A program made the position numbers and the translations under genes. From Bacillota bacterium (lineage in GTDB: Bacteria > Bacillota > JAAYKD01): a stretch of DNA of 64,000 nucleotides. Below, in pieces: positions 604 through 62,006 of this stretch (its first letter is position 1; each line of letters opens with the position of its first letter). The DNA lies in assembly GCA_963666425.2 (NCBI GenBank), contig OY762825.2, positions 1 through 64,000 of the forward strand, in the 5' to 3' direction. The notes under the pieces were generated by a model. It was not told where the DNA came from. It made no database searches and saw only the letters and a program-made list of their open reading frames with translations.

Positions 604-1368
604 ATGAATGAAATAGAGAAGCCAATAATCGTTGAATTTCCTTTAAGAGGTGAGTGGCTAACTCCTAATACGCCAGGGAAAAGGATTCCCAGCCACGGAA
701 CGAACCGATTTGGAACTCGCTACGCTTATGATTTCTTACAAGTGGATTGGAAAAGAAAAGGTTGGCCCAGTTACCGCATCCACTGGCTGCAGTATCTTCT
801 ATTTGGAGTCGCTCTCCATCAGTGTTATTGTTGGGGGCAAGAGATATATGCTCCCTGCGATGGTATCATTGTTCAAGCTGCAGATGGATATCGGGAAAGA
901 ACCAGAGTGCATTTACTTGCGGATTTATTCGTTGCCATTAAGAATTCCCATAATCAAAATCCAAACAAAGACAAAATCCAGTCCATTACCGGCAATTACA
1001 TCATAATGCAATGTGGTAAGGAGATCTATGCTGGATTTGCCCATCTTCAAAAAGATTCGATTCGGGTTGCAATTGGGCAATATGTAAAAAAAGGTGATAT
1101 TTTAGCCAGAGTAGGGCATTCGGGCAACTCGTTTTTTCCGCATCTGCACTTTCAACTCATGGATCATTATGAAATTCTTTCAGCAAATGGTTTACCCTGC
1201 GCTTTTGAGCAGTACGAATCATACCAAAACGGCGCATGGCGCACCGTGCTAAATGGTATTCCTATGGATAAGGAGAGAATACGCTTTGTGCCAACACCCC
1301 CGTCCCCTTGGCACACGTCCCCTTGGCACACGAATCATACCAAAACGGCGCATGGCGCACCGTGCTAA
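604..1368 (+). CDS. M23-family metallopeptidase; C-terminus extended by repeat-derived residues
   Basis: RBS GGAGGT upstream; SHG..YAYD, GNYIIM, AHLQ, GHSGNS and PHLHFQ (HxH) motifs; tail VPTPPSPWH is encoded by the 25-bp repeat. Confidence 0.8.
   Translation: MNEIEKPIIVEFPLRGEWLTPNTPGKRIPSHGTNRFGTRYAYDFLQVDWKRKGWPSYRIHWLQYLLFGVALHQCYCWGQEIYAPCDGIIVQAADGYRERTRVHLLADLFVAIKNSHNQNPNKDKIQSITGNYIIMQCGKEIYAGFAHLQKDSIRVAIGQYVKKGDILARVGHSGNSFFPHLHFQLMDHYEILSANGLPCAFEQYESYQNGAWRTVLNGIPMDKERIRFVPTPPSPWHTSPWHTNHTKTAHGAPC
1287..1315 (-). repeat. Dispersed 25/29-bp repeat, single copy (C-rich strand on top)
   Basis: TGTGCCAACACCCCCGTCCCCTTGGCACA; 8-bp terminal inverted repeat TGTGCCAA/TTGGCACA. Confidence 0.95.
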
Positions 1369-1402
1369 ATGGTATTCCTATGGATAAGGAGAGAATACGC
1401 TT

Positions 1403-1431
1403 TGTGCCAACACCCCCGTCCCCTTGGCACA
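1403..1431 (-). repeat. Dispersed 25/29-bp repeat, single copy
   Basis: Identical to 1287-1315. Confidence 0.95.
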
Positions 1432-1449
1432 AGACAGATGAAAGGAAAT

Positions 1450-2301
1450 ATGATGAAGAAGAAAACACATTTTTTATTAGTAATAACAATATTACTTTTG
1501 ATTGTCATAGCAGCAGCAGGAGTGCTATCGCTAGATTTCAGCAAAAGTTATAAAATCACAAACCAATATGGCGATGTAGTAGAAATTTACGGTAACGGTA
1601 TTTATGCCCACGATTCTTTTTTCAAAGCACCAATCTCCATCGGGACCGATATGTGTATCCTTTTTGTTTTGGTACCTCTGTTTATTTCTGTTTATTTGCA
1701 GAATCTGAAGGAATCTAGCAACAAAGTAAAATTGAAACTGATGTCGTTATATGCTGTTGCGTTTTATTATGCAGCCAGTATTTCGCTTGGAGTAACATAT
1801 AATCAATTTCATTTACTCTATATCGCACTTTTCACTTGCTCGCTGTTCGGTATCTTTTCTGTCATGCGGGAATTGAAAATGGAAGCATTGAATTATACCG
1901 CTACCAAAGGTATGGGTGTCTTTCTAGTCATGACAGGGATCGCATTAATCGCTGCATGGATGCCTGATATTATCCCAACGCTGATTTCCGGCACAACACT
2001 ACCGCTGATTGAGGTTTACACAACCGAAATCACCTATGTGCTGGATATGGGCATCATAGGTCCGCTCTGCTTGGTATGTTTTTCTTTGCTCAAGAAAAAA
2101 GACAAACTTGGCATTGTTATTTTAGCTCCATTACTGCAAGCCTGTATCATCGTTGGTATTATGATGATTCCACAAACAATATGCCAAATTCTTTCTGGTT
2201 ATGAGCTGGTTTTACCTGTGATGATTACAAAATCAGGTTCCTTTGTACTGTTGGGTGGCTTTGCCTACTACTTTAATCGAAAGTTATATCAAGGGTTATG
2301 A
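1450..2301 (+). CDS. Polytopic membrane protein, unknown function
   Basis: ORF 1369..2301; likely start ATG 1450 after AAAGGA; about 8 hydrophobic segments. Confidence 0.7.
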   Translation: MMKKKTHFLLVITILLLIVIAAAGVLSLDFSKSYKITNQYGDVVEIYGNGIYAHDSFFKAPISIGTDMCILFVLVPLFISVYLQNLKESSNKVKLKLMSLYAVAFYYAASISLGVTYNQFHLLYIALFTCSLFGIFSVMRELKMEALNYTATKGMGVFLVMTGIALIAAWMPDIIPTLISGTTLPLIEVYTTEITYVLDMGIIGPLCLVCFSLLKKKDKLGIVILAPLLQACIIVGIMMIPQTICQILSGYELVLPVMITKSGSFVLLGGFAYYFNRKLYQGL

Positions 2302-2324
2302 GTTGCATTTTTCACTTTGTCTTT

Positions 2325-2373
2325 AAGGGGACTTTATTCACGAAATATTCCGTGAGTAAAGTCCCCTTCTTTT
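2325..2373 (+). terminator. Intrinsic terminator-like hairpin
   Basis: AAGGGGACTTTATTCACG / CGTGAGTAAAGTCCCCTT 18-bp stem (one G-T pair) followed by CTTTT, 24 nt after the stop. Confidence 0.7.
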
Positions 2374-2760: not shown

Positions 2761-3063
2761 ATGAAAAACACACCAGCGTTTCGTGAGGCCAAGAAAAAGG
2801 TTCTTCGCAGATTGCAGCAGTTCGTACCGGTTGTGGAAAAAGTCCATGGCGGCAATCACCCGGAATTTCATCAAGTTCGTGCCATTTTTGATCGTATCAG
2901 TGAAAAGATAACAGCGGCAGCTGCCAGTCGGCCCGAGTTGGAGGAGGAATTTGCCAAGCTGCGTGAGATTACGGCGCACTACACCATCCCTGAAGATGTC
3001 TGCGAAACATACGAAGCTGTTTATCAGATGCTGGCAGAATTGGATCAGGCGTATCATGATTAA
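2761..3063 (+). CDS. Small iron-sulfur cluster repair (RIC/ScdA-like) di-iron protein
   Basis: KVHGGNHPE and YTIPEDVCETY...L.ELD motifs typical of the RIC hemerythrin-like domain; RBS AGGGAG. Confidence 0.7.
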   Translation: MKNTPAFREAKKKVLRRLQQFVPVVEKVHGGNHPEFHQVRAIFDRISEKITAAAASRPELEEEFAKLREITAHYTIPEDVCETYEAVYQMLAELDQAYHD

Positions 3064-3101: not shown

Positions 3102-4952
3102 GTGCAAAGGTTTATTTTAAGCAAGAAAAATGTCATAGCCCTGATTGAAGCAGTGTTAATTATCATTGCCTTTACCGGTGAATGGGGCTTTCACAATCCG
3201 GATTTATTTCTTTGGCCATTAATGATCGCTTCTGTGTTGGGGATCATCCCAATTGCCATACAAGCCTTTCAAGCATTAAAAGTCAAAGTCATCAGTATCG
3301 ATGTTTTAGTTACTGTCGCGGTGAGTGCAGCATTTTTCATTCAAAGCTATGAAGAATCCGCTATTGTGACCTTCTTATTCTTGTTTGGTGCTTTTCTCGA
3401 GCAGCGCACCTTGAATAAGACGCGTTCTGCGATTAAAGAATTGCTCGAAATGGCACCGGAAAATGCTTTGAAGCAGATGGCAAACGGCGAATTTGCAGAA
3501 GTAGAAGTAGATCAAGTTGAGGTAGGTGATATTCTGCTCGTGAAAACCGGTGCGAAAGTAGCGGTGGACGGTACCGTCTTAACGGGAGAAGCTTACATCA
3601 ATGAAGCAAGTATTACCGGTGAGTCGCTGCCGGTAAGTAAAAAGCAAGATTCTAGAGTTTTTGCCGGCACCATTTTAGAAAACGGAACCATTCAGATGAT
3701 TGCTGACCGGGTTGGCGAAGATACTACGTTTGGCAAGATTATCGAATTGGTTGAAGAAGCGCAGGATTCCAAATCAGAAGCCGAGCGTTTCATTGACAAA
3801 TTTTCGAGAAATTATACGCCCGTGGTTTTGCTGCTGGCGATGGTTGTTTTTCTCGTCTCGCGGAATCTTGAACTTGCGATTACAATTCTTGTGCTGGGAT
3901 GTCCGGGTGCCTTGGTAATCGGTGTACCTGTTTCAAATGTTGCCGGGATTGGCAATGGTGCCCGCTATGGCATTCTCTTAAAGGGCAGTGAAGTCATTCA
4001 CGATTTCAGCAGAGTCGATACCATGGTCTTTGATAAGACAGGAACGTTAACCAGCGGCAAGCCCAAAGTAGCCGATACAATAATCTATACAGTTGATTCC
4101 ATTCGGGTATTGGCTTACCTAGCCAATCTTGAAAAACAGTCGGATCACCCTTTGGCTAAGGCCGTTGTAGAATCAATCGGAGCCACGGATTTTTACCCTG
4201 TGGAAGAAACCGATGTGGTGAAAGGCAGCGGCATTATCGCCAAGGTTGATGGTCATCGGATCGCGGTTGGCAATCTCGCACTGATGCAGCGGGAAAGTGT
4301 ACAGTTCAATGAAAAAGCGAGCACGGATCTAGCGCGCTTGGAACAGAGCGGCAGCTCTCTTGTGCTGATGGCGGTGGATGGTGAATTAGCAGTTCTCATT
4401 GGCATTCGTGATCAGACTCGACCGGGTGTGAAAGCAGATCTTGAAAAGCTAAGGAAATTAGGTGTGAAAAAGCTGATCGTGCTTTCGGGAGACAACCAAG
4501 GCACCGTTGATTTGGTTGCGCGTGAGTTGGGCTTGACAGAAGCTCATGGTCACATGCTGCCGGAGGATAAATCGGCCTTTATTCAAAAGCTGCAGGCAGA
4601 AGGGCAGATTGTGGCCTTTGTGGGTGATGGTGTCAATGACAGTCCTTCTCTGGCTTTGGCACAAATTGGTATCGCGATGGGCAATGGCACGGATGTGGCG
4701 ATTGAAACCTCCGACGTAGTCCTGATGAACTCGGATTTCAGCCGCTTACCGCATGCCTTAGGCTTGACCAAAGCCATAGCGAAAAACATGCAGCAGAATA
4801 TTATCATCGCGGTTGGCGTTGTCCTATTCCTGCTTGCCAACGTTTTCTTCAGTGAATGGATGAACATGTCCATCGGTATGCTGGTCCATGAAGTCAGTAT
4901 CTTAGCTGTCATCTTAAATGGGATGAGGCTGCTTCGCTACCAAGTAGACTAA
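3102..4952 (+). CDS. Heavy-metal translocating P1B-type ATPase
   Basis: TGES, CPG, DKTGT, SDHP and GDGVND motifs; HEVS in the last TM; no N-terminal metal-binding domain. Confidence 0.95.
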   Translation: MQRFILSKKNVIALIEAVLIIIAFTGEWGFHNPDLFLWPLMIASVLGIIPIAIQAFQALKVKVISIDVLVTVAVSAAFFIQSYEESAIVTFLFLFGAFLEQRTLNKTRSAIKELLEMAPENALKQMANGEFAEVEVDQVEVGDILLVKTGAKVAVDGTVLTGEAYINEASITGESLPVSKKQDSRVFAGTILENGTIQMIADRVGEDTTFGKIIELVEEAQDSKSEAERFIDKFSRNYTPVVLLLAMVVFLVSRNLELAITILVLGCPGALVIGVPVSNVAGIGNGARYGILLKGSEVIHDFSRVDTMVFDKTGTLTSGKPKVADTIIYTVDSIRVLAYLANLEKQSDHPLAKAVVESIGATDFYPVEETDVVKGSGIIAKVDGHRIAVGNLALMQRESVQFNEKASTDLARLEQSGSSLVLMAVDGELAVLIGIRDQTRPGVKADLEKLRKLGVKKLIVLSGDNQGTVDLVARELGLTEAHGHMLPEDKSAFIQKLQAEGQIVAFVGDGVNDSPSLALAQIGIAMGNGTDVAIETSDVVLMNSDFSRLPHALGLTKAIAKNMQQNIIIAVGVVLFLLANVFFSEWMNMSIGMLVHEVSILAVILNGMRLLRYQVD

Positions 4953-8497: not shown

Positions 8498-9391
8498 ATG
8501 GATAGCAAGATAATCGAATTTTTAAGCAGCCCCGCATTACTTGAGCAAATTAGCGATATTACACGAATTGTTGATCCGCTGCAAAAAACGGTGACCGAGT
8601 ATAAAGATCGTGTGGCTATGATTGACGAAGCGCATTGTTTTGATTTCTGGGGCAAAAACAAAGCATGTGACAACTGCATTTCAATGAGAGGGTATAACGA
8701 TAATACTACCTATACAAAAATCGAATACACAAAAGATAAAACGTATATGGTTACAGCGGTTCCGTATAACATAGCCGACAGAAGAATTGTGATTGAGATG
8801 CTCAAAGACATTAGCAAAAGTGTTTTTCATGATTTGAGTGGTGATACTGTCATGCAACAGATTGGTATCCATACACTGATCGATAATATGAACAAGCTTG
8901 CTTTTCGCGATTCGTTAACCGGTCTTTATAATCGTCGATATATCATGGAAAAACTTCCGGTTGACTTACTGAACTCTGTTCTTTCAGCTACAGATTTGTC
9001 GATTATTATGGTGGATATCGATCACTTTAAAAAAGTAAACGATACTTATGGTCATATTGGCGGGGACTATACGCTGCAGCATGTCGCTGCAACATTATCC
9101 GGATGCCTGAAAAGAGCCAACGACTGGATTGCCAGATTTGGAGGAGAAGAATTTTTGATTTGCATGCCGGGAGCGAATCTTGAAGCAGCAAAAGCAACTG
9201 CGGAAGGTATGCGTGAGTCACTGGAAAAATCCTTGGTTCGATATCAGAATGCAGAATTCAACGTCACCGCCAGTTTTGGAATTAGCAATTTAAAATCAGT
9301 AGGACAGGTGAACGCCGAGGATTTAATCAAACAGGCAGATGAAAAACTATACTCAGCCAAAAACAATGGACGAAACAGAGTTGAGTTCTAA
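8498..9391 (+). CDS. Diguanylate cyclase (GGDEF) with Cys-containing PAS-like N-terminus
   Basis: DSLTGLYNRR, DIDHFKKVND and RFGGEEF; N-terminal C...W....C..C. Confidence 0.9.
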   Translation: MDSKIIEFLSSPALLEQISDITRIVDPLQKTVTEYKDRVAMIDEAHCFDFWGKNKACDNCISMRGYNDNTTYTKIEYTKDKTYMVTAVPYNIADRRIVIEMLKDISKSVFHDLSGDTVMQQIGIHTLIDNMNKLAFRDSLTGLYNRRYIMEKLPVDLLNSVLSATDLSIIMVDIDHFKKVNDTYGHIGGDYTLQHVAATLSGCLKRANDWIARFGGEEFLICMPGANLEAAKATAEGMRESLEKSLVRYQNAEFNVTASFGISNLKSVGQVNAEDLIKQADEKLYSAKNNGRNRVEF

Positions 9392-10152: not shown

Positions 10153-10872
10153 ATGATTTACTATTTCTCGGGGACCGGAAACTCAAAGTGGGTTGCCGAA
10201 CAAATCGCGTTGAAAACAAATGATACTGCGGTCAATATGGTTGAACAGTCGCTCGTTTCATCAGTAGATCAGCAAACCATCGGTCTGGTTTTCCCGATCT
10301 ATGCCTGGGGTGCACCGGAATTAGTCCTGGAATTTGTCAAAAAACTGGTGGGCCAGCCTCTGTTCACCTTTGGAGTCTGCACCTGTGGTTCGGAAGCCGG
10401 CAACGCTATGGAAAAAGTGAGCGCTATTTTCCCTTTGAACAGCATGTATTCGCTGGCGATGCCCAGCAATTACGTGATGGGAGCGGCGGTAGAGAGCAGA
10501 GAAATCATCGTCGCGAAGATAGCCAAAGCCAAAGAAAAACTGAAAACGATTGCTGCTCAAATCGTTGCCCAACAAGCGGTCGTTGATGTGAACAAAGGAA
10601 AATCACCATGGGTTAAATCCACCTTGGCTAATCTTGGTTTCAACAGGTTTTCCCGCAGCACCAAACCTTTTTATGTCACAGAGAAATGTACCTCCTGCGG
10701 CCTCTGCGCCAAAAACTGTCCCGCCAATACCATCAGTATGATTGACGGCAAACCACATTGGGGAGAAAAATGCTACCAATGTACGGCTTGTATCAATCGC
10801 TGTCCGGTCAGTGCGATAGAATACGGCAAAGAAACCTCTACCAGAGGCAGATATGAATTCAGTGAACAATAA
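10153..10872 (+). CDS. EFR1-family flavodoxin-ferredoxin fusion
   Basis: YFSGTGNS N-terminus; two CxxCxxCxxxCP [4Fe-4S] motifs. Confidence 0.9.
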   Translation: MIYYFSGTGNSKWVAEQIALKTNDTAVNMVEQSLVSSVDQQTIGLVFPIYAWGAPELVLEFVKKLVGQPLFTFGVCTCGSEAGNAMEKVSAIFPLNSMYSLAMPSNYVMGAAVESREIIVAKIAKAKEKLKTIAAQIVAQQAVVDVNKGKSPWVKSTLANLGFNRFSRSTKPFYVTEKCTSCGLCAKNCPANTISMIDGKPHWGEKCYQCTACINRCPVSAIEYGKETSTRGRYEFSEQ

Positions 10873-10876
10873 ATCG

Positions 10877-10904
10877 GTGCCAGGGGGACGGGGGTGTTGG
10901 CACA
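10877..10904 (+). repeat. Dispersed repeat, single copy (1 mismatch)
   Basis: GTGCCAGGGGGACGGGGGTGTTGGCACA, 4 nt after the EFR1 stop. Confidence 0.95.
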
Positions 10905-50172: not shown

Positions 50173-51921
<1,749 letters not shown>

Positions 51922-51932
51922 AAAATAAGAAC

Positions 51933-51994
51933 GAGCCAAGGGGACGGGGGTGTTGGCACATACTAATGTGCCAACACCCCCGTCCCCTTGGCTC
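51933..51994. repeat. Inverted doublet of the dispersed repeat (perfect ~28-bp hairpin)
   Basis: GAG+repeat(51936-51960), TACTAA, reverse-complement repeat (51967-51991)+CTC; lies between convergent pyk and crcB. Confidence 0.97.
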
Positions 51995-52001
51995 CCTTGG
52001 T

Positions 52002-52373
52002 TCAGAATGACCTGACCATTGCTTCAGCACCGGCAACCGATAGGATGCACAAAGTAACACTTAAACCAATATAGATTAAAGCGCTGAAAGTCTGTCCGTT
52101 TTGAAAAAGCTGATGAGATTCTAGTGAAAAAGTAGAAAATGTGGTGAAACCACCGCACAAGCCTACTTTCAGAAATAAAATCATATGCTCATCGACATGG
52201 CTGGACTTCGCTGCGGTAGCTGCAATGAGACCGATGACAAACGAACCGGTGATGTTGATGATTAAAGTCGTGATCGGCAAGTTCATTTGAGATTTGATTG
52301 GCATCTGACTGAGCAGATAGCGGAAGATTGAACCCAAAAAGCCTCCGATGCCAACAAAGAAACAATTCAGCAT
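52002..52373 (-). CDS. crcB: Fluoride efflux channel CrcB/FluC
   Basis: GGFLGS.FRY, NITGSF and GGFTTFSTFS.E. Confidence 0.96.
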   Translation of the reverse strand: MLNCFFVGIGGFLGSIFRYLLSQMPIKSQMNLPITTLIINITGSFVIGLIAATAAKSSHVDEHMILFLKVGLCGGFTTFSTFSLESHQLFQNGQTFSALIYIGLSVTLCILSVAGAEAMVRSF

Positions 52374-52555
52374 AGTGATCTCCTTTATTTTTGTTGCTTA
52401 TGGGAGTAATGAATTCTCATTTTGCTAGCTTAACATTTTTCGAAAACAAAGTCAATTCAAAACTGACTGCACCGCATCAATACGTTTCGTATGCAAAACC
52501 GAAAATAAAAGGGATCTCTGCTCGAAGAGAAGAATTGGAATAAATGAAATAAAAA

Positions 52556-52584
52556 TGTGCCAACACCCCCGTCCCCTTGGCACA
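52556..52584 (-). repeat. Dispersed repeat, single 29-bp copy
   Basis: TGTGCCAACACCCCCGTCCCCTTGGCACA. Confidence 0.95.
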
Positions 52585-52808
52585 GGGAACAAATTGAGGA
52601 ATTCTACGACTAACTAATATAACTTCTGCATCAGGTTGATAGGGAGCTGTCTGGCGTGAGGGAAAGGACGGATTTTCCAATTGGGGAGAAGAAAGGATGA
52701 TTTTATGAAACGCTTGGTTTTTTGGTTAGGCATGGACGATCGAATCAATGCCGTTTTGCATCAGCAGAGCCACGGTGGCGGGGGATTTTACTTAAAACAG
52801 GTGTCGAA

Positions 52809-53501
52809 ATGAAGAAGATTGCGATAATCCCGGTCTACAATGAGCAGAATAATATCATACAGGTGATGAATGATCTGAAGACGAATGCTCCTGATTTCGA
52901 TACTGTGATCATTAATGACGGATCAACCGATCATACGATTGAAGCGTGCAGGGGACATGGCTTCAATGTGATCAGTCTGCCAAGCAATGCGGGAATCGGT
53001 GCCAGTGTGCAGACAGGATATATTTATGCCTTGGAGAAAGGGTACGATATTGCTGTGCAATTTGATGGTGATGGGCAGCATGAAGCCAAGTTCTTAGGAA
53101 AATTGTATGATACAATGATTAGAACAGAGAGTGACATGGTCATTGGCTCCAGGTATCTCGCGAAGCAAGGTTTCCAATCCACAGCAATGAGAAGAATCGG
53201 CATTCGATTTTTGTCAAGCCTGATTAGAATTTTATATCGACAGAAAATAAGGGATGTTACCTCGGGACAGCGAATGGTCAATAGAAAAGTCATGGCTTTT
53301 TTTGCCGAATATTACCCTTATGATTATCCTGAACCGGAGACATTAGCTTTATGTATGCGGGAGAGATTTAAAGTGACAGAAGTGCCTGTCATCATGCGCT
53401 CTCGAAAAGATGGAAATTCTTCGATTGGCATCAGACAATCGGTTTATTATATGCTGAAGGTCAGTTTTTTTATTCTGGTTGGTTATTTTAAACAGTCCTA
53501 G
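52809..53501 (+). CDS. GT2 glycosyltransferase (DPM1-like, polyprenol-P-sugar synthase type)
   Basis: IIPVYNE, INDGSTD, QFDGDGQH, GSRY, D.TSG.R and YPEPE. Confidence 0.9.
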   Translation: MKKIAIIPVYNEQNNIIQVMNDLKTNAPDFDTVIINDGSTDHTIEACRGHGFNVISLPSNAGIGASVQTGYIYALEKGYDIAVQFDGDGQHEAKFLGKLYDTMIRTESDMVIGSRYLAKQGFQSTAMRRIGIRFLSSLIRILYRQKIRDVTSGQRMVNRKVMAFFAEYYPYDYPEPETLALCMRERFKVTEVPVIMRSRKDGNSSIGIRQSVYYMLKVSFFILVGYFKQS

Positions 53502-53543
53502 TAAACAAGAGAAGCCGCGAAGCGAAGAAGGAATAGGTGCAAA

Positions 53544-55397
53544 ATGAAGTCCTTCACAAATAGAATATCTGGATTTATTGTTTGGGTTTTATTTTCTTGC
53601 ACGTTGATTTACGCATCGATTTTTTTAAATTGGCAGCAAGAAAATCAGCAAAACAAGTTAACTGTAGTGATCTTTCTGATCATCGTTTTAATCCTGATAG
53701 CTGTGATCTGGCTGGTTCAGAATAGAAAAAAGGCAGGAACGGCAACCCTGACGCTCATGCAGGCACGTCCATCGTCTTTTCTGTTCGCGGGTCTCTTCAG
53801 TTTACTGGTTGGGTTTTTTTTCTTTGGCAAAACGTTTTTATATGAAGAAACCGGTTATTGGCTTTCTTTGGATCGTCTTCGTTATTTTCTTCTGCTTTGT
53901 ATCCCCATTTATGTCTACCTCCTATTCACTTTTACTATGCTCGATCGATTTAAATCGGTCATCGCGGAGCAGCCAAAGGAACCGGTGAGGCAGAAGGATA
54001 AGCTGAACTTAAAAACACATTACCTCTTGCTTTGGGTCCTGCAAATTGCCTTGCTTGGGGTTTATTTCTATGCCTTCTATCCAGGCAATATGTCTTATGA
54101 TACCTATAATCAGGTAAGTCAGCTGAAGGGTTTGATTCCCTTTAATACCTGGCATCCGATTGGCCACACGCTGCTGATTGGTTTATTACTGAAGATTTGG
54201 GATAATTACGCTGCGATTACCATTTTTCAGATACTCGTTTTTGCATCTGTTACTTCCGCCTTTTATGTCACTCTGTTGCGCAATCGAGTCAAATGGCAGA
54301 TCATTTATCTTCTAGCCGTCACCTTAAGTGCGATTCCATCTACCGGTATCAATGTAGTCACCCAATGGAAAGATATCCCTTTTACGGTCGGCCTATTGTG
54401 GGGCACGCTGATTCTGTTTAAAATGAGCCTGGAGAAGGCTTATTTCAGTAAGTTCAGTCACGGCGTTGAGTTTCTCTTCTGTTTGCTGACCGTCTCGTTG
54501 TTTCGTTATAACGGTATTCTTGCCTTCCTTGGTCTGTTGCTTTTTGCTTTCGTCTATGTAATAAAAAGCCATAACAAAATTCAGATTCGAAATTATACCC
54601 TATCGGCTTTGCTGATTATGACGGTTTTTTTTACGATCAACAGTGTGATTCCTGCTCGATTAAGTGCTGATCTGAATCCAGCGGGAATGAAACTGCGTCC
54701 GATCTATCAAGGTCTGGCTGCCGTTTATGCGAAGGGAGGAGAAGAAGACCTTAGCCCTGCCAGCTGCGCTTTGATCGAGTCTGTCTGCAGTCAAGAGCAG
54801 CTGGAGGATTATTACAATCCTTATTTTGCGGATATTATCTCGAACAATGTTCCTGATTTTTTGATCAACCTATCAGCAATTGATACCGCAGACGCCTTAA
54901 AAATGTATATTGAAGCTCTGCTTGTTCATCCGGAAGTGGTGATCGCGGATAAGTTGAATCTGGCAATTACGATGTGGTCGGTTACGAGCGACCAATTCAG
55001 TTACAATAACGCCTATACGACGGCGATTGAACCGGAAATGCAAAAGGTATTTGGCGTGACCAGAACCGGTAATGATTTAACAGAGGTGATTGAAAAAATA
55101 GCCGGAGCTACATTTCAAGAGAATTACTTTATCAATACGCTGATTTGGCGGCCGGGATTTTATCTGGCCTTGGAATTTATCCTGATGTTTTATTTAATCA
55201 TCAGAAGAGATAAAAGACTCAGCTTAATGATACCCTTGATTTGTAATGGTTTGATCGTTTTTTTGACGATGCCTGCTCAGGATTATCGCTATCTTTGGTT
55301 TATTGCGCTGCTTTTTCCATTTTTGGTTTTGGCCTGCAGTGTTCCATTACCAGAGGAAAAAATAGAGGATAGGAAAGGGAGAGATGTGCTTGGTTAA
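53544..55397 (+). CDS. Polytopic membrane protein, GT-C-like (DUF6020-like)
   Basis: More than 10 TMs; YPG.MSYD, WHP..HT, WKD.PF, FRYNG and DYRY. Confidence 0.65.
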   Translation: MKSFTNRISGFIVWVLFSCTLIYASIFLNWQQENQQNKLTVVIFLIIVLILIAVIWLVQNRKKAGTATLTLMQARPSSFLFAGLFSLLVGFFFFGKTFLYEETGYWLSLDRLRYFLLLCIPIYVYLLFTFTMLDRFKSVIAEQPKEPVRQKDKLNLKTHYLLLWVLQIALLGVYFYAFYPGNMSYDTYNQVSQLKGLIPFNTWHPIGHTLLIGLLLKIWDNYAAITIFQILVFASVTSAFYVTLLRNRVKWQIIYLLAVTLSAIPSTGINVVTQWKDIPFTVGLLWGTLILFKMSLEKAYFSKFSHGVEFLFCLLTVSLFRYNGILAFLGLLLFAFVYVIKSHNKIQIRNYTLSALLIMTVFFTINSVIPARLSADLNPAGMKLRPIYQGLAAVYAKGGEEDLSPASCALIESVCSQEQLEDYYNPYFADIISNNVPDFLINLSAIDTADALKMYIEALLVHPEVVIADKLNLAITMWSVTSDQFSYNNAYTTAIEPEMQKVFGVTRTGNDLTEVIEKIAGATFQENYFINTLIWRPGFYLALEFILMFYLIIRRDKRLSLMIPLICNGLIVFLTMPAQDYRYLWFIALLFPFLVLACSVPLPEEKIEDRKGRDVLG

Positions 55398-55731
55398 TTT
55401 CATTGCCTATATTTTTTTCACTGTGTTGGGACTTTTTATGATGAAATTTTCGGGTCACCCCATGCAGTTCAGCTTCAAGGATGGGTTCTTCAATTTTAAC
55501 ATCGGCAGCAAAATGTTTCTGGCGCTGATCTTTTATGTGACAAGTTTTTTGTTATGGACAGGCATCGTAGCCAAAAACGATTTAAGCTTTATCGTGCCAT
55601 TTTCTTCGGCAATTGTGAACGTGCTGGCTGTTGGCTTGGGAATTTTCTTTTTTCACGAAACAATGAATGTCTACAAGACAATTGGGATTATTCTGGCCAT
55701 TTTAGGGGTTATCCTGATGAATTATAAGTAG
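55384..55731 (+). CDS. Small EamA/SMR-like 4-TM protein (ArnE/ArnF-like flippase candidate)
   Basis: 115 aa, LS...P and FFHE......GI.L...GV. Confidence 0.65.
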   Translation: MCLVNFIAYIFFTVLGLFMMKFSGHPMQFSFKDGFFNFNIGSKMFLALIFYVTSFLLWTGIVAKNDLSFIVPFSSAIVNVLAVGLGIFFFHETMNVYKTIGIILAILGVILMNYK

Positions 55732-55744
55732 AAATCAAGATAAA

Positions 55745-55806
55745 GCCAAGGGGACGGGGGTGTTGGCACAAACTATTTGTGCCAACACCCCCGTCCCCTT
55801 GGCACA
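55745..55806. repeat. Inverted doublet of the dispersed repeat
   Basis: Repeat 55746-55770, AACTATT, reverse-complement repeat 55778-55802(+CACA). Confidence 0.97.
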
Positions 55807-55821
55807 TTCTTTTTAAAGTCG

Positions 55822-55849
55822 AAAGGAATCTCATTGGCAAGAGAGGAAT
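55822..55849 (+). promoter_or_regulatory. Possible SigH-type promoter
   Basis: AAAGGAATC...GAAT, 22 nt between motif starts. Confidence 0.35.
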
Positions 55850-55952
55850 TTAAGTGCAAAGCTACAATCTACTAGTATTTTGATGAAAATTACTGAATCA
55901 GGCGATTGCTGATCAAATAGAAATAAAGCAGAGGAGCGAAAGGAGTGTTGTT

Positions 55953-58760
55953 ATGATACAACGCAGCACAGAAACAAAGCAAAGCTTTCTGTTGGAAGGC
56001 TTGAATAGAAAGCAAACTCGGCTATTGGTGATTGTCTTCATTGCTGTTATTTTTGCACTCAGCGGTCTTTATTTACGTTTTGCTTGGCAGCGTTATGAGA
56101 ACATCGCCTCATCGGAAGCGGTTATGTTGGCGCAGTCGCTGGTTACCTTAATACACTCCGAGGAGATTGCCGAACTATCCGGCAGCCTGGCGGATTTGGA
56201 AAAGCCAGCCTACAGAATGCTCAAAAGCAGCTTGATGCAACTGGTGAATACGACGAATCCAATTCATTTTGCTTATCTGATGCAAGAGCAGGCAGGCAGC
56301 ATTGTCATTCTGATGGACTCGGAATCACCCATCTCAGCCGATTTTTCACCGCCTGGACAAATCTATGAAGAAGCGGATGAAAGCTACCGGGAAGCTTTTC
56401 GCACAGGTAAGACGGTATTAACCGATCCGATCATCGATCGCTGGGGAACCTGGATCAGCGCTCTGGTTCCGATCAAAGATCGGCTTGACAATTCTGTCAT
56501 AGCCGCTTTTGGCATAGATTATGCCGCTTCAGAGTGGTATGCAGACTTGTGGAAGCAAATGATCCCCGACGCGATGATTGTTGCTTGCCTCCTGCTGCTT
56601 TTGCTGGCTTTGCTGCGTTCGAGGACACAGCAACTGGTTCTCACGCAGCTAAGTGAGAAATTGTCTTTTGATGAAAACTTCTACCACAGTGTGTTTGATC
56701 AGGCTCCGATTGGAATTGCCATTGTCAATGATAAGAGCTTTGTTATTCAATCGGAGTTTGGGTCGATGAATATCAATCCAATGTTCGAACATATTCTTGG
56801 CAGGACAAGTCAAGATTTAGGTAGGATAAAATGGACCGAGATCACGCATCCGGAAGACCTTGATAGCGATCTCAGTAAATTTGAACAATTTAAAAATGGT
56901 GTCATCAATGGCTATTCTTTAGAAAAGCGTTTCTTAAAGCCGGATGGTTCGAGCCTGTGGACAAATATCCACATCTCTCATCTCTTTGGAAACCATGATA
57001 AGCACTCAAAACACCTTTGTTTGCTGGAGGATATCAGTGCTCGCAAGTTAATAGAGAAGTCGCTCTTGGAAAGTGAACGCAGCAAATCGGTTTTGATTTC
57101 GAATTTGCCGGGCATGGCTTACCGCTGTAAATATGATCGCAGCTGGACAATGCTGTTTGTATCTCCCGGTTGTATTCCGTTAACCGGCTATCTACCGGAA
57201 AGCCTGGTGAACAACAGAGATTTATCCTTTAATGATCTGATCACGCCCGAATATCGCGAACCGCTTTGGCAAGAATGGCAGCGGACACTTATCGCGAGAC
57301 TGCCATTCAAGTATGAATATGAAATTACGGCTGCTAACGGAGAACGTAAATGGGTAATGGAGTTAGCGGAAGGAATTTATAACGAACAGGATGAAGTGGA
57401 AACACTGGAGGGCATTATTCTCGATATCTCAGACCGCAAAGCAATGGAGAATCATCTTAGATATAGTAATGAACATGATAGCTGGACTGGGTTATACAAT
57501 CGTGCTTACTTAGAAAATCTTTTACGAAACGATGCAAAAGCCCATAAAGCAGAGAAGAGAGCGCTCGTTGGTGTCAACCTGAGTACTGTGCAGCAGCTGA
57601 GCATGATCTATGGCTTCTATTACAGTCAAGAATTAATCAAAAAGGTCACCGAAGCAATGACTTTGCTGTGCAATGATCAATGCCAGCTTTTCAATACCTA
57701 TGTCAATCGGTTTATTTTCTATATCAAGGGTTATGAAGATAAGAACAGTTTAGTCGCTTTTAGCAATGTTGTTGTACAGGTGTTGGAATCGGTGTTTGCC
57801 ATTGAAAGAATTGGCGGTGGCATTGGAATAGTGGAAATAGACTCAAACAACGAGCAGGATCCGGACCGGATTCTGAAAGACTTGCTGATTGCATCTGAAA
57901 AAGCGTTTACTGTGATTGACCGTGATTTTGCTTTCTGCTTTTATGATGCGGAAATGGAAGCGCAGATTAACCGAGAAGAAACGATACGGCGGGAACTTGT
58001 GCAAATTGCCGCCGAGGAGAGACTGCAAAGATTATATCTGCAATTTCAACCGATTTTCGACCTAAAGACGAATCGCATCTGCGGCTTTGAAGCTTTGGCT
58101 CGCTTAAACAGCGAAAACCTGGGAAGTGTTCCTCCCATGGAATTCATCGCGATCGCCGAGAAAAACAAACTGATCATTCCTTTGGGTAACCAAATCATTC
58201 GGCAAGCGTTTCACTTTCTCAATCGACTGAAAGAAAATGGATATAACAATATCGACGTGTCCATCAACATTTCCGCCATTCAATTGCTGCGCAGTGATTT
58301 TGTGGAACGTTTATTCGAGCTGGTTGAGACAATGCAAGTAAACCCTGCCAATATCTGTATTGAGATTACAGAATCGATTTTTGTTTCGAGTTATCAGGCA
58401 GTCAACCAGGTGCTTGCTCAATTGAAGGCGATTGGCATGAGTATTGCGATTGATGATTTTGGAATTGAGTACTCATCTCTTGCCCGGGAACGTGAATTAA
58501 ATATCAACTGTCTGAAAATTGATAAATATTTTATTGATAAACTCCTCCTGTTAAAAGAAGAGGAAGCCATTACAGCCGATATTATCTCTATGGCACATCG
58601 CTTGGGTCACATTGTGATAGCCGAAGGAGTAGAATACGAAAAACAGCGACAGTATTTAAAAAAACACGGCTGCGATAAAATACAGGGTTATCTGATTGCG
58701 AAGCCATTGGATGAAGACGTGGCGATGGCGCTGCTCCACCAACAAGTCAGTCAAGGTTGA
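55953..58760 (+). CDS. Membrane sensor-PAS-PAS-degenerate GGDEF-EAL phosphodiesterase
   Basis: Two TMs, THPED and PAS motifs, GGDEF position reads YVNRF, EALARL and DDFG.EYSSL. Confidence 0.88.
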   Translation: MIQRSTETKQSFLLEGLNRKQTRLLVIVFIAVIFALSGLYLRFAWQRYENIASSEAVMLAQSLVTLIHSEEIAELSGSLADLEKPAYRMLKSSLMQLVNTTNPIHFAYLMQEQAGSIVILMDSESPISADFSPPGQIYEEADESYREAFRTGKTVLTDPIIDRWGTWISALVPIKDRLDNSVIAAFGIDYAASEWYADLWKQMIPDAMIVACLLLLLLALLRSRTQQLVLTQLSEKLSFDENFYHSVFDQAPIGIAIVNDKSFVIQSEFGSMNINPMFEHILGRTSQDLGRIKWTEITHPEDLDSDLSKFEQFKNGVINGYSLEKRFLKPDGSSLWTNIHISHLFGNHDKHSKHLCLLEDISARKLIEKSLLESERSKSVLISNLPGMAYRCKYDRSWTMLFVSPGCIPLTGYLPESLVNNRDLSFNDLITPEYREPLWQEWQRTLIARLPFKYEYEITAANGERKWVMELAEGIYNEQDEVETLEGIILDISDRKAMENHLRYSNEHDSWTGLYNRAYLENLLRNDAKAHKAEKRALVGVNLSTVQQLSMIYGFYYSQELIKKVTEAMTLLCNDQCQLFNTYVNRFIFYIKGYEDKNSLVAFSNVVVQVLESVFAIERIGGGIGIVEIDSNNEQDPDRILKDLLIASEKAFTVIDRDFAFCFYDAEMEAQINREETIRRELVQIAAEERLQRLYLQFQPIFDLKTNRICGFEALARLNSENLGSVPPMEFIAIAEKNKLIIPLGNQIIRQAFHFLNRLKENGYNNIDVSINISAIQLLRSDFVERLFELVETMQVNPANICIEITESIFVSSYQAVNQVLAQLKAIGMSIAIDDFGIEYSSLARERELNINCLKIDKYFIDKLLLLKEEEAITADIISMAHRLGHIVIAEGVEYEKQRQYLKKHGCDKIQGYLIAKPLDEDVAMALLHQQVSQG

Positions 58761-58790
58761 CGATACGAAACCGGTAAAGAGGTTACCCGC

Positions 58791-59981
58791 ATGACGAAAC
58801 AAGACTCTCATGGAAAATTACAAAAGCGAACTTTATGGCTCTGCTTTATTGCTTATATGCTGGTCTACACGGGCAGGCTGAACCTTTCGATTGCTTCGCC
58901 GCTGCTGCAAAATGGCGGTTTCCTCAACAAAGAGCAAATTGGCGTCCTGGGCAGTGTTTTCTTCTTTATTTATGCGGCGGGACGGATTATCAACGGCAAT
59001 ATTGGCGATCGAATTGCACCTAAACCGTTTCTTGCCTTTGGTATGTTTGCTTCTGCTCTCTGTAATTTGGCTATCGCAACGCTGCCGCCGATCTGGTGCA
59101 TGTATGTCCTGTGGGGCTGCAATGGTTTGTTTCAATCCATGCTTTGGGGTGCGGCGTTACGCAATGTCTCCCTGACCTACCCGTTGAAAGCCAAAGCTGA
59201 GCAGGCAGCCATGATTTTATCCGCATCGGTTGGTGTAGGTAATCTGCTGGCGATTGTTCTGGCCACCGGCATGGCGCAAATCAGCCTGCGCATGATCTTC
59301 TTTGTTCCGGGACTATTGATGCTGGTGATGAGCTTACTGCTCTTGCTCTTTTTGCCAAACAACAGGGCAGAGCAGAGTGCAGAAGTCAAGACAAGCTTTT
59401 CTTGTCTGCGCAATCCGAATTTGCTGAAAATGTTGCTGCCGGCGGCCATGCATGGCGTGGTAAAGGAAAACCTGACCTTGTGGACTCCGCTGCTGCTGAT
59501 GGATTTGTATCAATTGGATTTTTATAAAGTGAAGTATTATATTTTCCTGATGCCGCTGGCTACTTTGCTGGGGCGTATGTTGTTTCCTGTCTGGTATAAA
59601 CTGTGCAAAAACAACGAAACAAAGACACTGGTGAGCGCCTTTTTAGTTTGCATCGTCGCGCTGTTCCCGTTTCTCTTGTTGACACCGCCGATTTGGCTGA
59701 CCGGTATTCTTTTGGCTGTGGTCTGTATCTGCACTTCGGTGATCAATGCGGAATTGATGTCCGTTTATCCAATCAATTTTCAAAAAAGCAATCAGGTATC
59801 GACCGTATCGGGAATCTTGGACTGCGCCACTTACATTGGCTCCGCACTAGGCAGTGCAGCTTTTGGCTTCTTGATTATCGCCTCCGGTTACACTGCCATG
59901 ATCACCGTGTGGATTGTGCTGTGTATCTTGTCGGTCGGTATCTTATACCCTGTCAAATACGTAAAACTTAAATCCGCCTAA
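58791..59981 (+). CDS. MFS transporter (GlpT/UhpT-like)
   Basis: About 12 TMs; Y.GR.N.SIA, G.IGDR and NG.FQS..W. Confidence 0.85.
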   Translation: MTKQDSHGKLQKRTLWLCFIAYMLVYTGRLNLSIASPLLQNGGFLNKEQIGVLGSVFFFIYAAGRIINGNIGDRIAPKPFLAFGMFASALCNLAIATLPPIWCMYVLWGCNGLFQSMLWGAALRNVSLTYPLKAKAEQAAMILSASVGVGNLLAIVLATGMAQISLRMIFFVPGLLMLVMSLLLLLFLPNNRAEQSAEVKTSFSCLRNPNLLKMLLPAAMHGVVKENLTLWTPLLLMDLYQLDFYKVKYYIFLMPLATLLGRMLFPVWYKLCKNNETKTLVSAFLVCIVALFPFLLLTPPIWLTGILLAVVCICTSVINAELMSVYPINFQKSNQVSTVSGILDCATYIGSALGSAAFGFLIIASGYTAMITVWIVLCILSVGILYPVKYVKLKSA

Positions 59982-59983
59982 AC

Positions 59984-60045
59984 ATGTACCAAGGGGACGG
60001 GGGTGTTGGCACAACTGTGCCAACACCCCCGTCCCCTTGGTACAT
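59984..60045. repeat. Inverted doublet of the dispersed repeat (perfect 30-bp arms)
   Basis: ATGTA+repeat(59989-60013), AC, reverse-complement repeat (60016-60040)+TACAT. Confidence 0.97.
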
Positions 60046-60152
60046 CCTGATCGGGAACATTCGGTTCGATTTTTCGTCTATCTTTTGTGATGCTTTAGTG
60101 CTAGAATACTCTTCGAGCATATATCAAGGCAATGACATGAAAGGACATCAAA

Positions 60153-61331
60153 ATGAATGTTCGAAAATTGAAATTCATAGTACTGTGTCTAACAACAATG
60201 CTGCTGTTGAGCGGCTGCAGTTTGTTCGGGAATGTAAAGCTGCCGCCCGCTGCTCCTCCAGGAAATGGTGAGCCGGAAGAATCGCCCGACCCCGTTCCAA
60301 CACCGAAACCAACAGAAACAACAGATGAAGTGAGAGCGAAGGCAATCTTGCAGAATATGACGCGGCAGGAAAAGATTGGTCAATTGTTTTTCGTCCGCTT
60401 AAGAAAAGATCAGGCATTTGAGGATATAAAAAACTATCATTTAGGTGGATTAATCTTGGTGGGGAATGACTTCGTCAACGAAAACAAGACAAGTATTAAA
60501 AATCTAATAACAAGTTATCAAACCGCCGCGTCAATACCAATGCTGATTGGAGTGGATGAAGAGGGCGGAACGGTCAATCGGCTCAGTATGTATCTGGCAT
60601 TTCGAGGGGTTCCATTTCATTCGCCAATGGATTTATACAACGAAGGTGGTTTTGCCTTAATCCGCAGTGATACCTTGGAGAAAGCGGAACTGTTACTGAG
60701 CCTTGGCATTAATGTAAACCTGGCTCCGGTTTGCGATGTTTCCACCGATCCAAATGATTTTATCTATGCGCGTTCTTTTGGCAAAGATGCTGCAGCGACT
60801 TCAGCCTATGTGAAAGCTGTCGTTGAAGTGATGGCAGAGAACAAGTTAGGCTGCGCTTTAAAGCATTTTCCTGGTTATGGCAACAATTCGGATACGCACA
60901 CAGGTGCAGCATTGGATGAGAGAGCGTATCAGACTTTTATCACCAGTGATTTTCTGCCCTTTGAGGCAGGCATCAAAGCGGGTGCGGGCAGTATCATGGT
61001 CAGTCATAATATTATCACGAGTGTGGATCAGGAACATCCAGCCTCTCTCTCTGCCGCGATCCATGAAATTTTGAGAAAAGATTTGGGTTTTACCGGGGTT
61101 GTGATGACCGATGATTTAAGTATGGATGCCATTAAGGGATACACAGGAGTCAGTGAGGCTGCGGTCCTGGCGATTCAGGCGGGCAATGATCTCTTGATTG
61201 CCACAAACTTTGAACAACAGATCCCCGCTGTTCTGGCTGCCGTTGAGCAGGGAACCATCTCTGAGAGCAGAATCGATGAATCGGTTATAAGAATCCTGGA
61301 ATGGAAACTCGCTCTCGGTGTGATCAAATAA
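60153..61331 (+). CDS. GH3 beta-N-acetylhexosaminidase (NagZ-like) lipoprotein
   Basis: Lipobox LLSGC, Pro-rich linker, DEEGG, APVCD, RSF, KHFPGYG...DTH and MTDDLSM. Confidence 0.9.
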   Translation: MNVRKLKFIVLCLTTMLLLSGCSLFGNVKLPPAAPPGNGEPEESPDPVPTPKPTETTDEVRAKAILQNMTRQEKIGQLFFVRLRKDQAFEDIKNYHLGGLILVGNDFVNENKTSIKNLITSYQTAASIPMLIGVDEEGGTVNRLSMYLAFRGVPFHSPMDLYNEGGFALIRSDTLEKAELLLSLGINVNLAPVCDVSTDPNDFIYARSFGKDAAATSAYVKAVVEVMAENKLGCALKHFPGYGNNSDTHTGAALDERAYQTFITSDFLPFEAGIKAGAGSIMVSHNIITSVDQEHPASLSAAIHEILRKDLGFTGVVMTDDLSMDAIKGYTGVSEAAVLAIQAGNDLLIATNFEQQIPAVLAAVEQGTISESRIDESVIRILEWKLALGVIK

Positions 61332-61339
61332 TACAAAAG

Positions 61340-61401
61340 TGTACCAAGGGGACGGGGGTGTTGGCACAAGTGTGTGCCAACACCCCCGTCCCCTTGGTAC
61401 A
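61340..61401. repeat. Inverted doublet of the dispersed repeat (perfect 29-bp arms)
   Basis: TGTA+repeat(61344-61368), AGTG, reverse-complement repeat (61373-61397)+TACA. Confidence 0.97.
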
Positions 61402-61523
61402 TTGGGCAAAACGATAAACCATCGCTCCCTACCGTGTGATTTTAGGCGTAAATGAAGGTAATCATAATTTGATGTGGAATTTGGCAACATAAAATATAAG
61501 ATAATGATACGAGGAGAGTACTT

Positions 61524-62006
61524 ATGAAAACATTAATAATTTATACATCGTTTCATCACAGCAATACAGAAAAGGTTGCACTTGCTATGGCGAAAGTGCT
61601 TGGGGCAGATACCGTGAAATCCAAAGACTTCAAAAAAGGAAAAATCAGCAAGTATGATACAATTGGGATCGGTTCTGGAATCTATGGAGGAAAAATTAAA
61701 AAGGATATAGCAGAAATAATAGATAGTGTTAATTGGGAAAACAAGAATGTTTTTGTATTTTCGACCAGTGGATGGGGGAGTATCAAGTATAACGATAGTA
61801 TGACCAGTATGCTGGAAAAGAAAAAGGCAAAAGTAATCGGGAGTTTTACCTGTAAGGGATTTGATACCTTTGGCATTCTTAAATTTTTCGGTGGAATAGC
61901 AAAAGGGCATCCGAATGCAGAAGACATCGAAAATGCGCAGAATTTTGCCCGAAATCTAATCGAGGCCAAGGGGACGGGGGTTGTGGCGCCAAACATTCTG
62001 TCTTAA
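61524..62006 (+). CDS. Flavodoxin-family protein; C-terminus repeat-derived
   Basis: Y.S.HH.NT.KVA, GSGIY, FSTSG and KGHP; tail AKGTGVVAP comes from the degenerate repeat. Confidence 0.88.
   Translation: MKTLIIYTSFHHSNTEKVALAMAKVLGADTVKSKDFKKGKISKYDTIGIGSGIYGGKIKKDIAEIIDSVNWENKNVFVFSTSGWGSIKYNDSMTSMLEKKKAKVIGSFTCKGFDTFGILKFFGGIAKGHPNAEDIENAQNFARNLIEAKGTGVVAPNILS
61966..61990 (+). repeat. Degenerate dispersed repeat inside ORF 3' end
   Basis: CCAAGGGGACGGGGGT matches the first 16 nt exactly, then TGTGGCGCC diverges. Confidence 0.85.

Follow-up and report, generated by a model that had tools for sequence, protein, structure and literature searches.

A homogeneous repeat family in an uncultured member of the Bacillota

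We found that the first 64,000 nucleotides of contig OY762825.2, from the assembly of an uncultured Bacillota bacterium (GCA_963666425.2) and referred to here as the window, carry a 25-nt repeat family which, on balance, we take to be a lineage-specific, non-autonomous dispersed palindromic repeat of the kind represented by repetitive extragenic palindromes (REPs) and bacterial interspersed mosaic elements (BIMEs), resembling in its paired form the REP doublets that form hairpins (REPINs). An initial annotation, made from the sequence alone, had described the architecture as REP/REPIN-like, and this description was borne out: a short, near-identical unit occurs as singlets and as inverted doublets at the 3′ ends of genes, with three demonstrable insertions into gene ends.

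The family is real and homogeneous. Scanning both strands for the 25-mer with up to 3 mismatches returned 14 matches, 11 of them exact and three with one mismatch (10880, 15036 and 17306), while none of 100 dinucleotide-preserving shuffles of the window contained any match at this threshold. Relaxing the scan to 8 substitutions added a copy at 61966 (4 mismatches) and a match at 62063 (8 mismatches), the latter being at chance level, as 20 shuffled windows gave 0–1 such matches each. The 15 copies fall at the coordinates given in the initial annotation, eight on the plus strand (10880, 15036, 17306, 51936, 55746, 59989, 61344 and 61966) and seven on the minus strand (1287, 1403, 51967, 52556, 55778, 60016 and 61373). 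Their mismatch counts are bimodal, with no copy having 2–3 or 5–7, and with a limit of 7 mismatches the 64-kb window holds no further degenerate copy. The window is also richer than its shuffles in scattered 8-mers from the unit (52 against a mean of 29), although nine of the 52 come from a single partial copy at 1316–1330. Two of the three one-mismatch copies, at 10880 and 17306, have the same A4G change, which points to a subfamily rather than to independent decay.

Eight of the 15 units are arranged in four inverted doublets (51936/51967, 55746/55778, 59989/60016 and 61344/61373). Those at 1287 and 1403 cannot be counted separately, since both belong to one perfect direct repeat of 102 nt with a period of 116 nt. 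Counting this duplication and each doublet once leaves ten independent sites, which we lettered A to J along the window. All eight units in doublets are exact, compared with three of the seven singlets (Fisher P=0.026). Exact doublets alongside decaying singlets are as expected in the REPIN model, with doublets as the replicating form.

Doublets fold into long perfect hairpins

The conserved unit is the 25-mer itself, preceded by a variable head flank of 3–4 nt: the four bases ahead of it are NGAG in five copies, TGTG in four, TGTA in four, and GGTG and AAAG in one each. The initial annotation had described a full 29-nt form with 8-bp terminal inverted arms, and this form was found in the four copies preceded by TGTG (1287, 1403, 52556 and 55778) but not in the other 11. 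The palindrome within a unit is accordingly weak, with arms of 4–7 bp around a 13-nt G-rich loop wherever the 8-bp arms are missing, and as DNA the singlets fold at only −2.8 to −7.1 kcal/mol. On the C-rich strand, the tetranucleotide CGTC occupies positions 15–18 of the 29-nt unit, within the loop.

The doublets have the same geometry in all four cases, the GGCACA tails pointing inward and the CCAAGG heads outward. Complementarity between the arms is perfect over 28–30 nt, variable head flank included, with DNA folding energies of −39.4 to −41.7 kcal/mol (z −11.5 to −14.1) and 2, 4, 6 or 7 nucleotides separating the two 25-mers. Doublet E (51933–51994), built of two exact units, forms a perfect 29-bp hairpin with a 4-nt loop (−41.7 kcal/mol, z −13.4), and doublet G (55745–55803) a perfect 28-bp hairpin with a 3-nt loop (−40.2 kcal/mol, z −14.1). 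Doublet H (59984–60045) has perfectly complementary arms of 30 nt around a 2-nt spacer (−39.4 kcal/mol, z −12.2), and doublet I (61340–61401) has 29-nt arms, again perfectly complementary, around a 4-nt spacer (−40.8 kcal/mol, z −11.5). Reading the copy at 61966 and the match at 62063 as a fifth, decayed doublet with a long spacer was rejected, since the fold of 61950–62110 equals that of its shuffles (z −0.17).

Inspection of 40-nt flanks revealed no target-site duplication or flanking direct repeat at any singlet or doublet, which fits insertion of the HUH type rather than the DDE type. This bears on the possibility that the family is a minimal miniature inverted-repeat transposable element. 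On this reading, a DDE-type insertion sequence, present elsewhere at full length and mobilising the copies, would have the unit as its terminal inverted repeat; the doublets would be two such ends with the interior deleted, and the singlets solo ends. Many insertion sequence ends read TG...CA, and so do the outer ends of doublets H and I, every unit beginning TG(TG/TA) and ending CA; the near-identity and dispersal of the copies also fit. However, besides the missing target-site duplications, the head flanks differ between copies (GAG, TGTG, TGTA, AAAG), spacers of 2–7 nt leave no interior, the window contains no insertion sequence, and a 74-nt doublet query (blastn, distant mode) matched none of 72,556 plasmid and 50,697 phage records. 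We therefore judge an origin from insertion sequence ends to be distinctly unlikely.

Head-end pieces of the unit lie beside full copies at three sites. These are the 15 nt at 1316–1330, a CCAAG two bases ahead of the copy at 15036, and a CCTTGG three bases past doublet E, at 51991; the background frequency of CCAAG in the window is about 1 per 940 nt per strand. Two further resemblances were discarded. The tail of the unit, TTGGCACA, is similar to the −24 element of a sigma-54 promoter, but the sequence expected at −12 differs at every copy. An A-rich similarity of 18 nt, shared by the upstream sides of doublets E and G and site J, probably reflects base composition, and the flank at J is conserved flavodoxin coding sequence.

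Copies lie at stop codons and have inserted into gene ends

Nine of the ten independent sites lie between −85 and +15 nt of a stop codon, a zone spanning 9.6% of the window (binomial P=6e-9). For the doublets and the 10880 singlet, the distance from the stop of the upstream plus-strand gene to the repeat is 2–13 nt. Site B (10877–10904, plus strand), the one-mismatch A4G singlet, begins 4 nt past the TAA of an EFR1-family ferredoxin gene (10153–10872). Doublet E is situated between the convergent genes pyk and crcB, 11 nt from the stop of the former (51921) and 7 nt from that of the latter (52002). Doublet G follows the stop of an EamA-like gene (55384–55731) by 13 nt, doublet H that of a major facilitator superfamily transporter gene (58791–59981) by 2 nt, and doublet I that of a NagZ-like gene (60153–61331) by 8 nt. 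The sole site away from stop codons is F (52556–52584, minus strand), an exact singlet of the 29-nt form in the region between the divergent crcB and glycosyltransferase genes. Here it occupies the 348-nt leader (52374–52721) of crcB (52002–52373, minus strand), in which we detected no fluoride riboswitch, even at E≤1.

At the remaining sites (A, C, D and J), four copies in all run into the ends of open reading frames (ORFs). The 29-nt form of site A, with an exact 25-mer (1287–1315, minus strand), supplies the last codons of an M23 peptidase ORF (604–1368). Site C (15036–15060, plus strand), a one-mismatch singlet, is inside the 3′ end of a Peptidase_MA-like ORF (14170–15093), where it encodes SQGDGGIGT. 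Site D (17306–17330, plus strand), the second A4G variant, forms the last 9–10 codons of ORF 16650–17336; the start of this ORF is over-extended when it is drawn as 16545–17336, as the P-loop-like protein begins at M36, position 16650. Site J (61966–61990, plus strand) is the degenerate singlet with 4 mismatches, located inside the 3′ end of a flavodoxin ORF (61524–62006) and encoding (A)KGTGVVAP.

We compared the encoded tails with those of homologues taken from the top of each hit list, aligning 8 of 5691 hits for site D, 9 of 427 for site C and 7 of 1514 for site A, and counting only non-self sequences. At site D, all seven such homologues (61–69% identical) end 1–3 residues past a conserved HFxL, whereas the window protein extends beyond it with the repeat-encoded SQGDGGVGTI. 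At site C, all eight end before the 20-residue tail of the window protein, which starts KSQGDGGIGT. At site A, all six end 0–3 residues past ...IRF, while the window M23 peptidase adds the repeat-coded VPTPPSPWH. That homologues end before the repeat-coded tails at A, C and D indicates that the repeat is not ancestral there and was inserted at or just before the stop codons. This comparison shows that at least three copies (A, C and D) inserted into pre-existing gene ends, displacing the native stop. For the flavodoxin of site J, the matches of the 150 best representatives end at about residue 145–150 of 160 and the repeat begins at codon 148; this is only consistent with insertion, because the homologues' own tails differ by 4–12 residues. 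One consequence for annotation is that the repeat appends spurious-looking tails of 9–20 residues (SQGDGGVGT, VPTPPSPWH) to unrelated proteins.

Placement at stop codons could also reflect a host cis-element, either a conserved hairpin at 3′ ends that stands in for a terminator or stabilises mRNA, or a site bound by a protein, with spread and uniformity produced by recombination or gene conversion and selection. Consistent with this, nine of the ten sites are at stop codons, doublet E stands in place of the ordinary hairpin that follows pyk in the nearest relative (L001, described below), and 14 of the 15 copies have retained no more than one mismatch although the insertions are old enough for fixation in several strains. 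REPs of Escherichia coli have been reported to act as regulators in 3′ untranslated regions (10.64898/2026.03.23.713779). However, such a function leaves the arrival of the same 25-mer at 10 unrelated loci, and inside four ORFs, unaccounted for. A G+C-rich hairpin followed by a sense-strand T-tract, as in an intrinsic terminator, was found at none of the four doublets; in a terminator scan of 50000–64000, doublet G alone scored, and on the minus strand only. Singlets are incapable of forming a long hairpin, and the core block, where terminators are needed as well, has 19 intergenic gaps in a row without a copy. A search of the whole window against Rfam gave no match at gathering score. Taken together, a purely host-encoded function appears rather unlikely to explain the family. 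With the Rfam threshold lowered to E≤1 on 51900–52800, doublet E drew sub-threshold microRNA-precursor models, which we took as generic hairpin matches.

Distribution across the window

The initial annotation had noted an empty stretch holding the core genes, and had proposed that the family is confined to accessory DNA. The empty stretch itself was recovered, no copy lying between 17331 and 51935 in the scan at up to 8 substitutions, and a 34.6-kb gap of this kind is not expected among 10 uniformly placed sites (P=0.0045). Counting intergenic gaps of at least 20 nt, 10 of 43 hold a copy, and the run of 19 empty gaps has P=0.011; a post-hoc split of the gaps, 10/24 against 0/19, gives a Fisher P of 0.0011. 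Identification of the empty stretch with core genes holds for the 24–52 kb block, which has a GC content of 0.45–0.51 and tightly packed housekeeping genes (sbcCD, ftsZ, nrdR, sepF, divIVA, lspA, rluD, pyrR, rqcH, gmk, tilS, hpt, ftsH, proS and pyk), but not for 17.4–24.5 kb, which is low-GC, non-housekeeping DNA.

Restriction to accessory DNA was likewise upheld only in part. In its favour are the non-random clustering, the lower GC content of the copy-bearing flanks (0.38–0.46) and the horizontal-like distribution of the M23 peptidase gene at site A. Homologues of this peptidase that are 65–76% identical have a strikingly patchy spread and are named from very distant taxa, among them Lacrimispora, Desulfosporosinus, Sporosarcina and Cytobacillus and the methanogenic archaea Methanocorpusculum, Methanimicrococcus and Methanogenium. 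Pyk, by comparison, is 75% and 62% identical to proteins of two uncultured Bacillota/Clostridia metagenome-assembled genomes and at most 52% identical to all others found. This contrast fits horizontal acquisition of at least the M23 gene in the flank. The claim is weakened by the 17.4–24.5 kb segment, where GC is low and four intergenic gaps are free yet no copy is found, by the 9.5 kb of flank from 1.4 to 10.9 kb, also without a copy, and by the first doublet, E, which lies directly 3′ of the core gene pyk. A simpler reading, with accessory and core DNA judged on one 64-kb window, is that insertions last wherever there is intergenic space for them and they are tolerated.

The uneven spread also bears on whether the repeat could be a DNA uptake signal sequence read by a competence receptor. 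In favour, the motif is short and exactly conserved, is found in both orientations and has inverted pairs just past genes, and uptake sequences are often paired as terminators in Neisseria and Haemophilus. Uptake sequences are, however, spread evenly and densely through the core genome, coding regions included, whereas the present copies are unevenly distributed and avoid the 34.6-kb core block; exact conservation over 25 nt also far exceeds the known uptake cores of 9–12 nt, and Bacillota are not known to take up DNA in a sequence-specific way. An uptake function is thus extremely improbable.

Gene capture or exchange, as proposed in the initial annotation, would require a different role for the doublets. 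They would act as attC-like sites bounding cassettes of 1–3 genes that a site-specific recombinase exchanges. Between 51.9 and 62.0 kb the genes do form blocks of 1–3, each bounded by repeats and all but crcB on the plus strand; the flank genes are of lower GC content, the M23 peptidase gene has a patchy distribution suggestive of horizontal transfer, and the repeats fold as hairpins at the 3′ ends of successive co-oriented genes, much as integron attC sites and Vibrio cholerae repeats do. Integron attC sites are imperfect palindromes that need extrahelical bases and lie next to an intI tyrosine recombinase gene. In contrast, the stems of the doublets run for 28–29 bp without an unpaired base, and the window encodes no integrase or recombinase. 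Singlets and intra-ORF copies would make no sense as cassette boundaries, and the 1.4–10.9 kb flank is free of copies. In other taxa, homologues of the neighbouring genes lack the repeat, so it did not travel with these genes, and the other strains seen do not differ in gene content at A, C, D and J. Cassette recombination is therefore very unlikely. Equally slight are the prospects of an integron-like capture system in Bacillota, in which doublets bound cassettes of 1–3 horizontally acquired genes and the responsible recombinase or HUH enzyme is encoded in another part of the 2.9-Mb genome; on that view, aborted reactions starting at the internal CGTC would have left the singlets and the step-by-step duplications of site A as scars.

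Comparison of strains reveals local duplication at site A

To compare strains, we used proteins at least 99% identical to those of the window on other contigs (1.48 Mb, 24.7 kb, 14.3 kb and smaller). Three allelic states were found at site A. In one allele (P0391) the repeat is alone; in a second (P0512) it is joined by a 15-nt partial copy, in frame and coding TSPWH; and in the third (P0511), the form present in the window, a 116-bp tandem duplication is added. In the window, the partial copy (1316–1330, minus strand) is a tandem re-copy of the head end of the unit whose plus-strand start is exactly at the internal CGTC, and no microhomology was found at its junction. The duplication spans 1214–1431 as a perfect direct repeat of 102 nt, period 116 nt, and each arm (1214–1315 and 1330–1431) ends in a full unit. 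The second unit (1403–1431, minus strand), a duplicate of 1287–1315, is 7 nt upstream of the likely ATG of the next gene (1438). As the 102-nt direct repeat is missing from the P0391 and P0512 alleles, it is a strain-specific tandem duplication. These alleles mark site A as a hot spot for small tandem duplications, which vary from strain to strain, and show ongoing local instability there. This polymorphism is no demonstration of transposition or gene exchange.

None of the near-identical strains listed differs in the repeat-coded tails at C, D and J, three strains sharing that of J; these insertions therefore predate the strain split. The strain data lend no support to the gene capture or exchange put forward in the initial annotation: the only rearrangement seen is the local 15-nt and 116-bp duplication, and the C, D and J insertions do not vary in the strains listed. 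For the doublets, we searched the protein collection by exact look-up for five spurious ORFs spanning the repeats, and all five were absent.

Perfect palindromes can arise from some library artefacts, which raised the possibility that the repeats result from assembly errors or chimeras. However, contigs assembled independently from other sources, among them ones of 1.48 Mb, 24.7 kb and 14.3 kb, carry the same repeat-coded tails, and their proteins have a few strain-specific substitutions elsewhere. The probability of an artefact is negligible.

The repeat family is lineage-specific

The exact 25-mer, with R allowed at two positions, was not found in the reference genomes of 185,579 species (one genome each). 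For closer relatives, we collected 255 stretches matching Pyk peptide patterns, of which 128 encode a relative, and retained 80 loci; none of these 80 pyk-anchored loci contains the 25-mer at up to 6 substitutions. We then compared the 61 window proteins with the 80 loci by tblastn, considering the rows for the two loci L001 and L002 only. The nearest relative, L001, whose Pyk is 75% identical, shares tilS-hpt-ftsH-fchA-proS-pyk and nothing downstream of pyk, where an ordinary 17-bp hairpin follows, while L002 shares pyk alone. No comparable repeat family is present in L001 (21.7 kb) or L002 (10.6 kb). Two extra ORFs of L001 (6285–7172 and 9026–9985), within the syntenic ftsH-fchA-proS-pyk block, have no counterpart in the window. 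Within the window, the ORF encoding Pyk (49999–51921) is over-extended at its start, homology to Pyk beginning at residue 59.

These comparisons establish that the repeat family is lineage-specific. A literature search with four 13-nt pieces of the repeat returned no relevant context (an unrelated quantitative PCR viral array, pig GUSB and a Streptomyces sigma-E regulon). Since no relevant literature match and no reference genome with the 25-mer was found, the family itself appears undescribed, though its kind is well known.

Relation to REPs and a possible mechanism of spread

In the systems of E. coli, Pseudomonas and Stenotrophomonas, REPs, BIMEs and REPINs are associated with REP-associated tyrosine transposases (RAYTs) (PMC3733652, PMC3116915, PMC6006769), and their features as described in these sources recur in the window. 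These include short, near-identical dispersed units (25–29 nt), the occurrence of singlets together with inverted dimers, tight dimers 1–5 bp apart among them, placement at the 3′ ends of genes, sometimes with insertion into the end of an ORF, the lack of a target duplication, better conservation of doublets than of singlets, and a sequence that is specific to a species or lineage. With 15 copies in 64 kb, nine of ten sites at stop codons and four inverted doublets, the family is also REP-like in copy number and placement.

REPs are defined by a terminal GTAG or CGTC tag (PMC3733652), the GTAG (GTRG/GYAG) lying at the foot of the stem-loop (PMC3733652, PMC6006769). Their hosts are given as Proteobacteria, Cyanobacteria, Chloroflexi, the Planctomycetes-Verrucomicrobia-Chlamydiae group, Chlorobi, Bacteroidetes, Spirochaetes and Thermotogae (PMC3733652); the available text of the GTAG/CGTC surveys lists no family from Bacillota, to which the present host belongs. 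Clostridia are also among the hosts of Group 1 RAYTs (PMC5581495), which have been mapped onto one TnpA-Y1 subclass (PMC6006769), and clusters of stem-loop repeats are described as generally present in Clostridium genomes (PMC2267715).

A second point of comparison is provided by the RAYT-like TIRYT genes (for tyrosine transposases associated with terminal inverted repeats), placed in subclass 2.1 of TnpA-Y1 (PMC6006769). These genes are flanked by non-REP inverted repeats that share the motif GGGGWSAS and sometimes form moderately abundant, dimer-forming families (PMC3733652). Like the present unit, the terminal inverted repeats (TIRs) of these TIRtrons are not of the GTAG type, are moderately abundant and occur as dimers or clusters in the manner of REPs (PMC3733652, PMC6006769). 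The unit holds GGGGACGG, which matches the motif at 7 of 8 positions, an agreement that may be due to chance in a G-rich 25-mer and serves as a lead only. CGTC-tagged REPs, such as the RPE-like elements of Rickettsia, are also short palindromes without a known dedicated transposase (PMC3733652), and CGTC is present in the unit. In that class, however, the CGTC is terminal, the stem of 8–9 bp starts with A-T pairs, the loop is 4–5 nt and a CCA tail follows (PMC3733652). The unit thus works like a REP or TIR repeat but fits neither tagged superfamily.

If the family is of the REP/REPIN-like kind, its copies would be the work of an enzyme whose gene lies elsewhere in the genome and which recognises the unit when it is single-stranded and folded. 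The likeliest candidate would be a Y1 HUH transposase of the RAYT or TIRYT type, which would leave no target duplication. Insertions would persist only in places where they do little damage, namely at the 3′ ends of genes that are poorly packed and often horizontally acquired, and harmful insertions would be removed by purifying loss. By analogy with E. coli REPs, transcribed doublet hairpins may then act as 3′-end barriers, probably as mRNA stabilisers or terminator substitutes.

Several observations weigh against this reading. A terminal GTAG or GTRG is found in none of the 15 copies, the palindrome of the single unit is weak, and the CGTC is internal, in mid-unit, so that the unit is not of the CGTC type either. 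A unit of a GTAG-type REP is an imperfect palindrome of 20–40 nt able to fold by itself; here just two of six singlet contexts fold better than 95% of their shuffles, making recognition of a one-unit hairpin doubtful. Head flanks and spacers vary among the doublets, which are therefore not simple copies of one another. The 64-kb window encodes no transposase or recombinase, a Y1_Tnp-like ORF included, in searches of 61 ORFs against NCBIfam and 26 against Pfam; it thus holds neither a single-copy RAYT (TnpA-REP) gene with copies on its flanks, as in a REPtron, nor a TIRYT gene, whose product is a Y1 HUH protein with a C-terminal HTH. The missing sense-strand T-tracts tell against the role proposed for the hairpins in RNA. 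Neither filled/empty polymorphism nor recent transposition was seen at C, D and J in the strains listed; the only polymorphism is the local duplication at site A, and replication slippage could yield this without a dedicated enzyme.

Work on REP/REPIN repeats and the domesticated transposases that go with them has been confined almost wholly to Proteobacteria and a few other phyla. The family described here provides a clean case in an uncultured member of the Bacillota, combining a sharply defined unit, perfect hairpins, demonstrable insertions at stop codons and a locus with three alleles. It may offer a handle on the enzyme that moves such repeats in Gram-positive bacteria, for which the poorly understood TIRYT/subclass 2.1 Y1 proteins are candidates, as well as on the effect of hairpins on mRNA 3′ ends and on strain typing by repeats. 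Should it prove an ordinary REP, it would be a useful catalogue entry and not a discovery.

Other features of the window

A search for tRNA and tmRNA genes in the window found none. A 38-nt direct repeat of a different kind, 84% identical between its two copies (19417–19454 and 22082–22119) and ending in TGTATAATTTA, lies upstream of a GGDEF-EAL gene (19699–22026) and a HAD-like gene (22234–23100), and may be a shared promoter or operator. The GGDEF-EAL protein is one of four proteins of cyclic di-GMP turnover, all encoded in the low-GC flanks, the others being a GGDEF protein (8498–9391), a degenerate GGDEF protein (23112–24509) and a PAS-GGDEF-EAL protein (55953–58760). Just upstream of a heavy-metal P-type ATPase gene (3102–4952), a 100-aa ORF (2761–3063) matches only the last ~43 positions (159–201 of 216) of the RIC/ScdA di-iron iron-sulfur repair profile and is probably a gene fragment. 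Finally, the housekeeping block includes an alpha-L-fucosidase gene (28969–30396; Pfam E 5.6e-90), located between sbcC and ftsZ.

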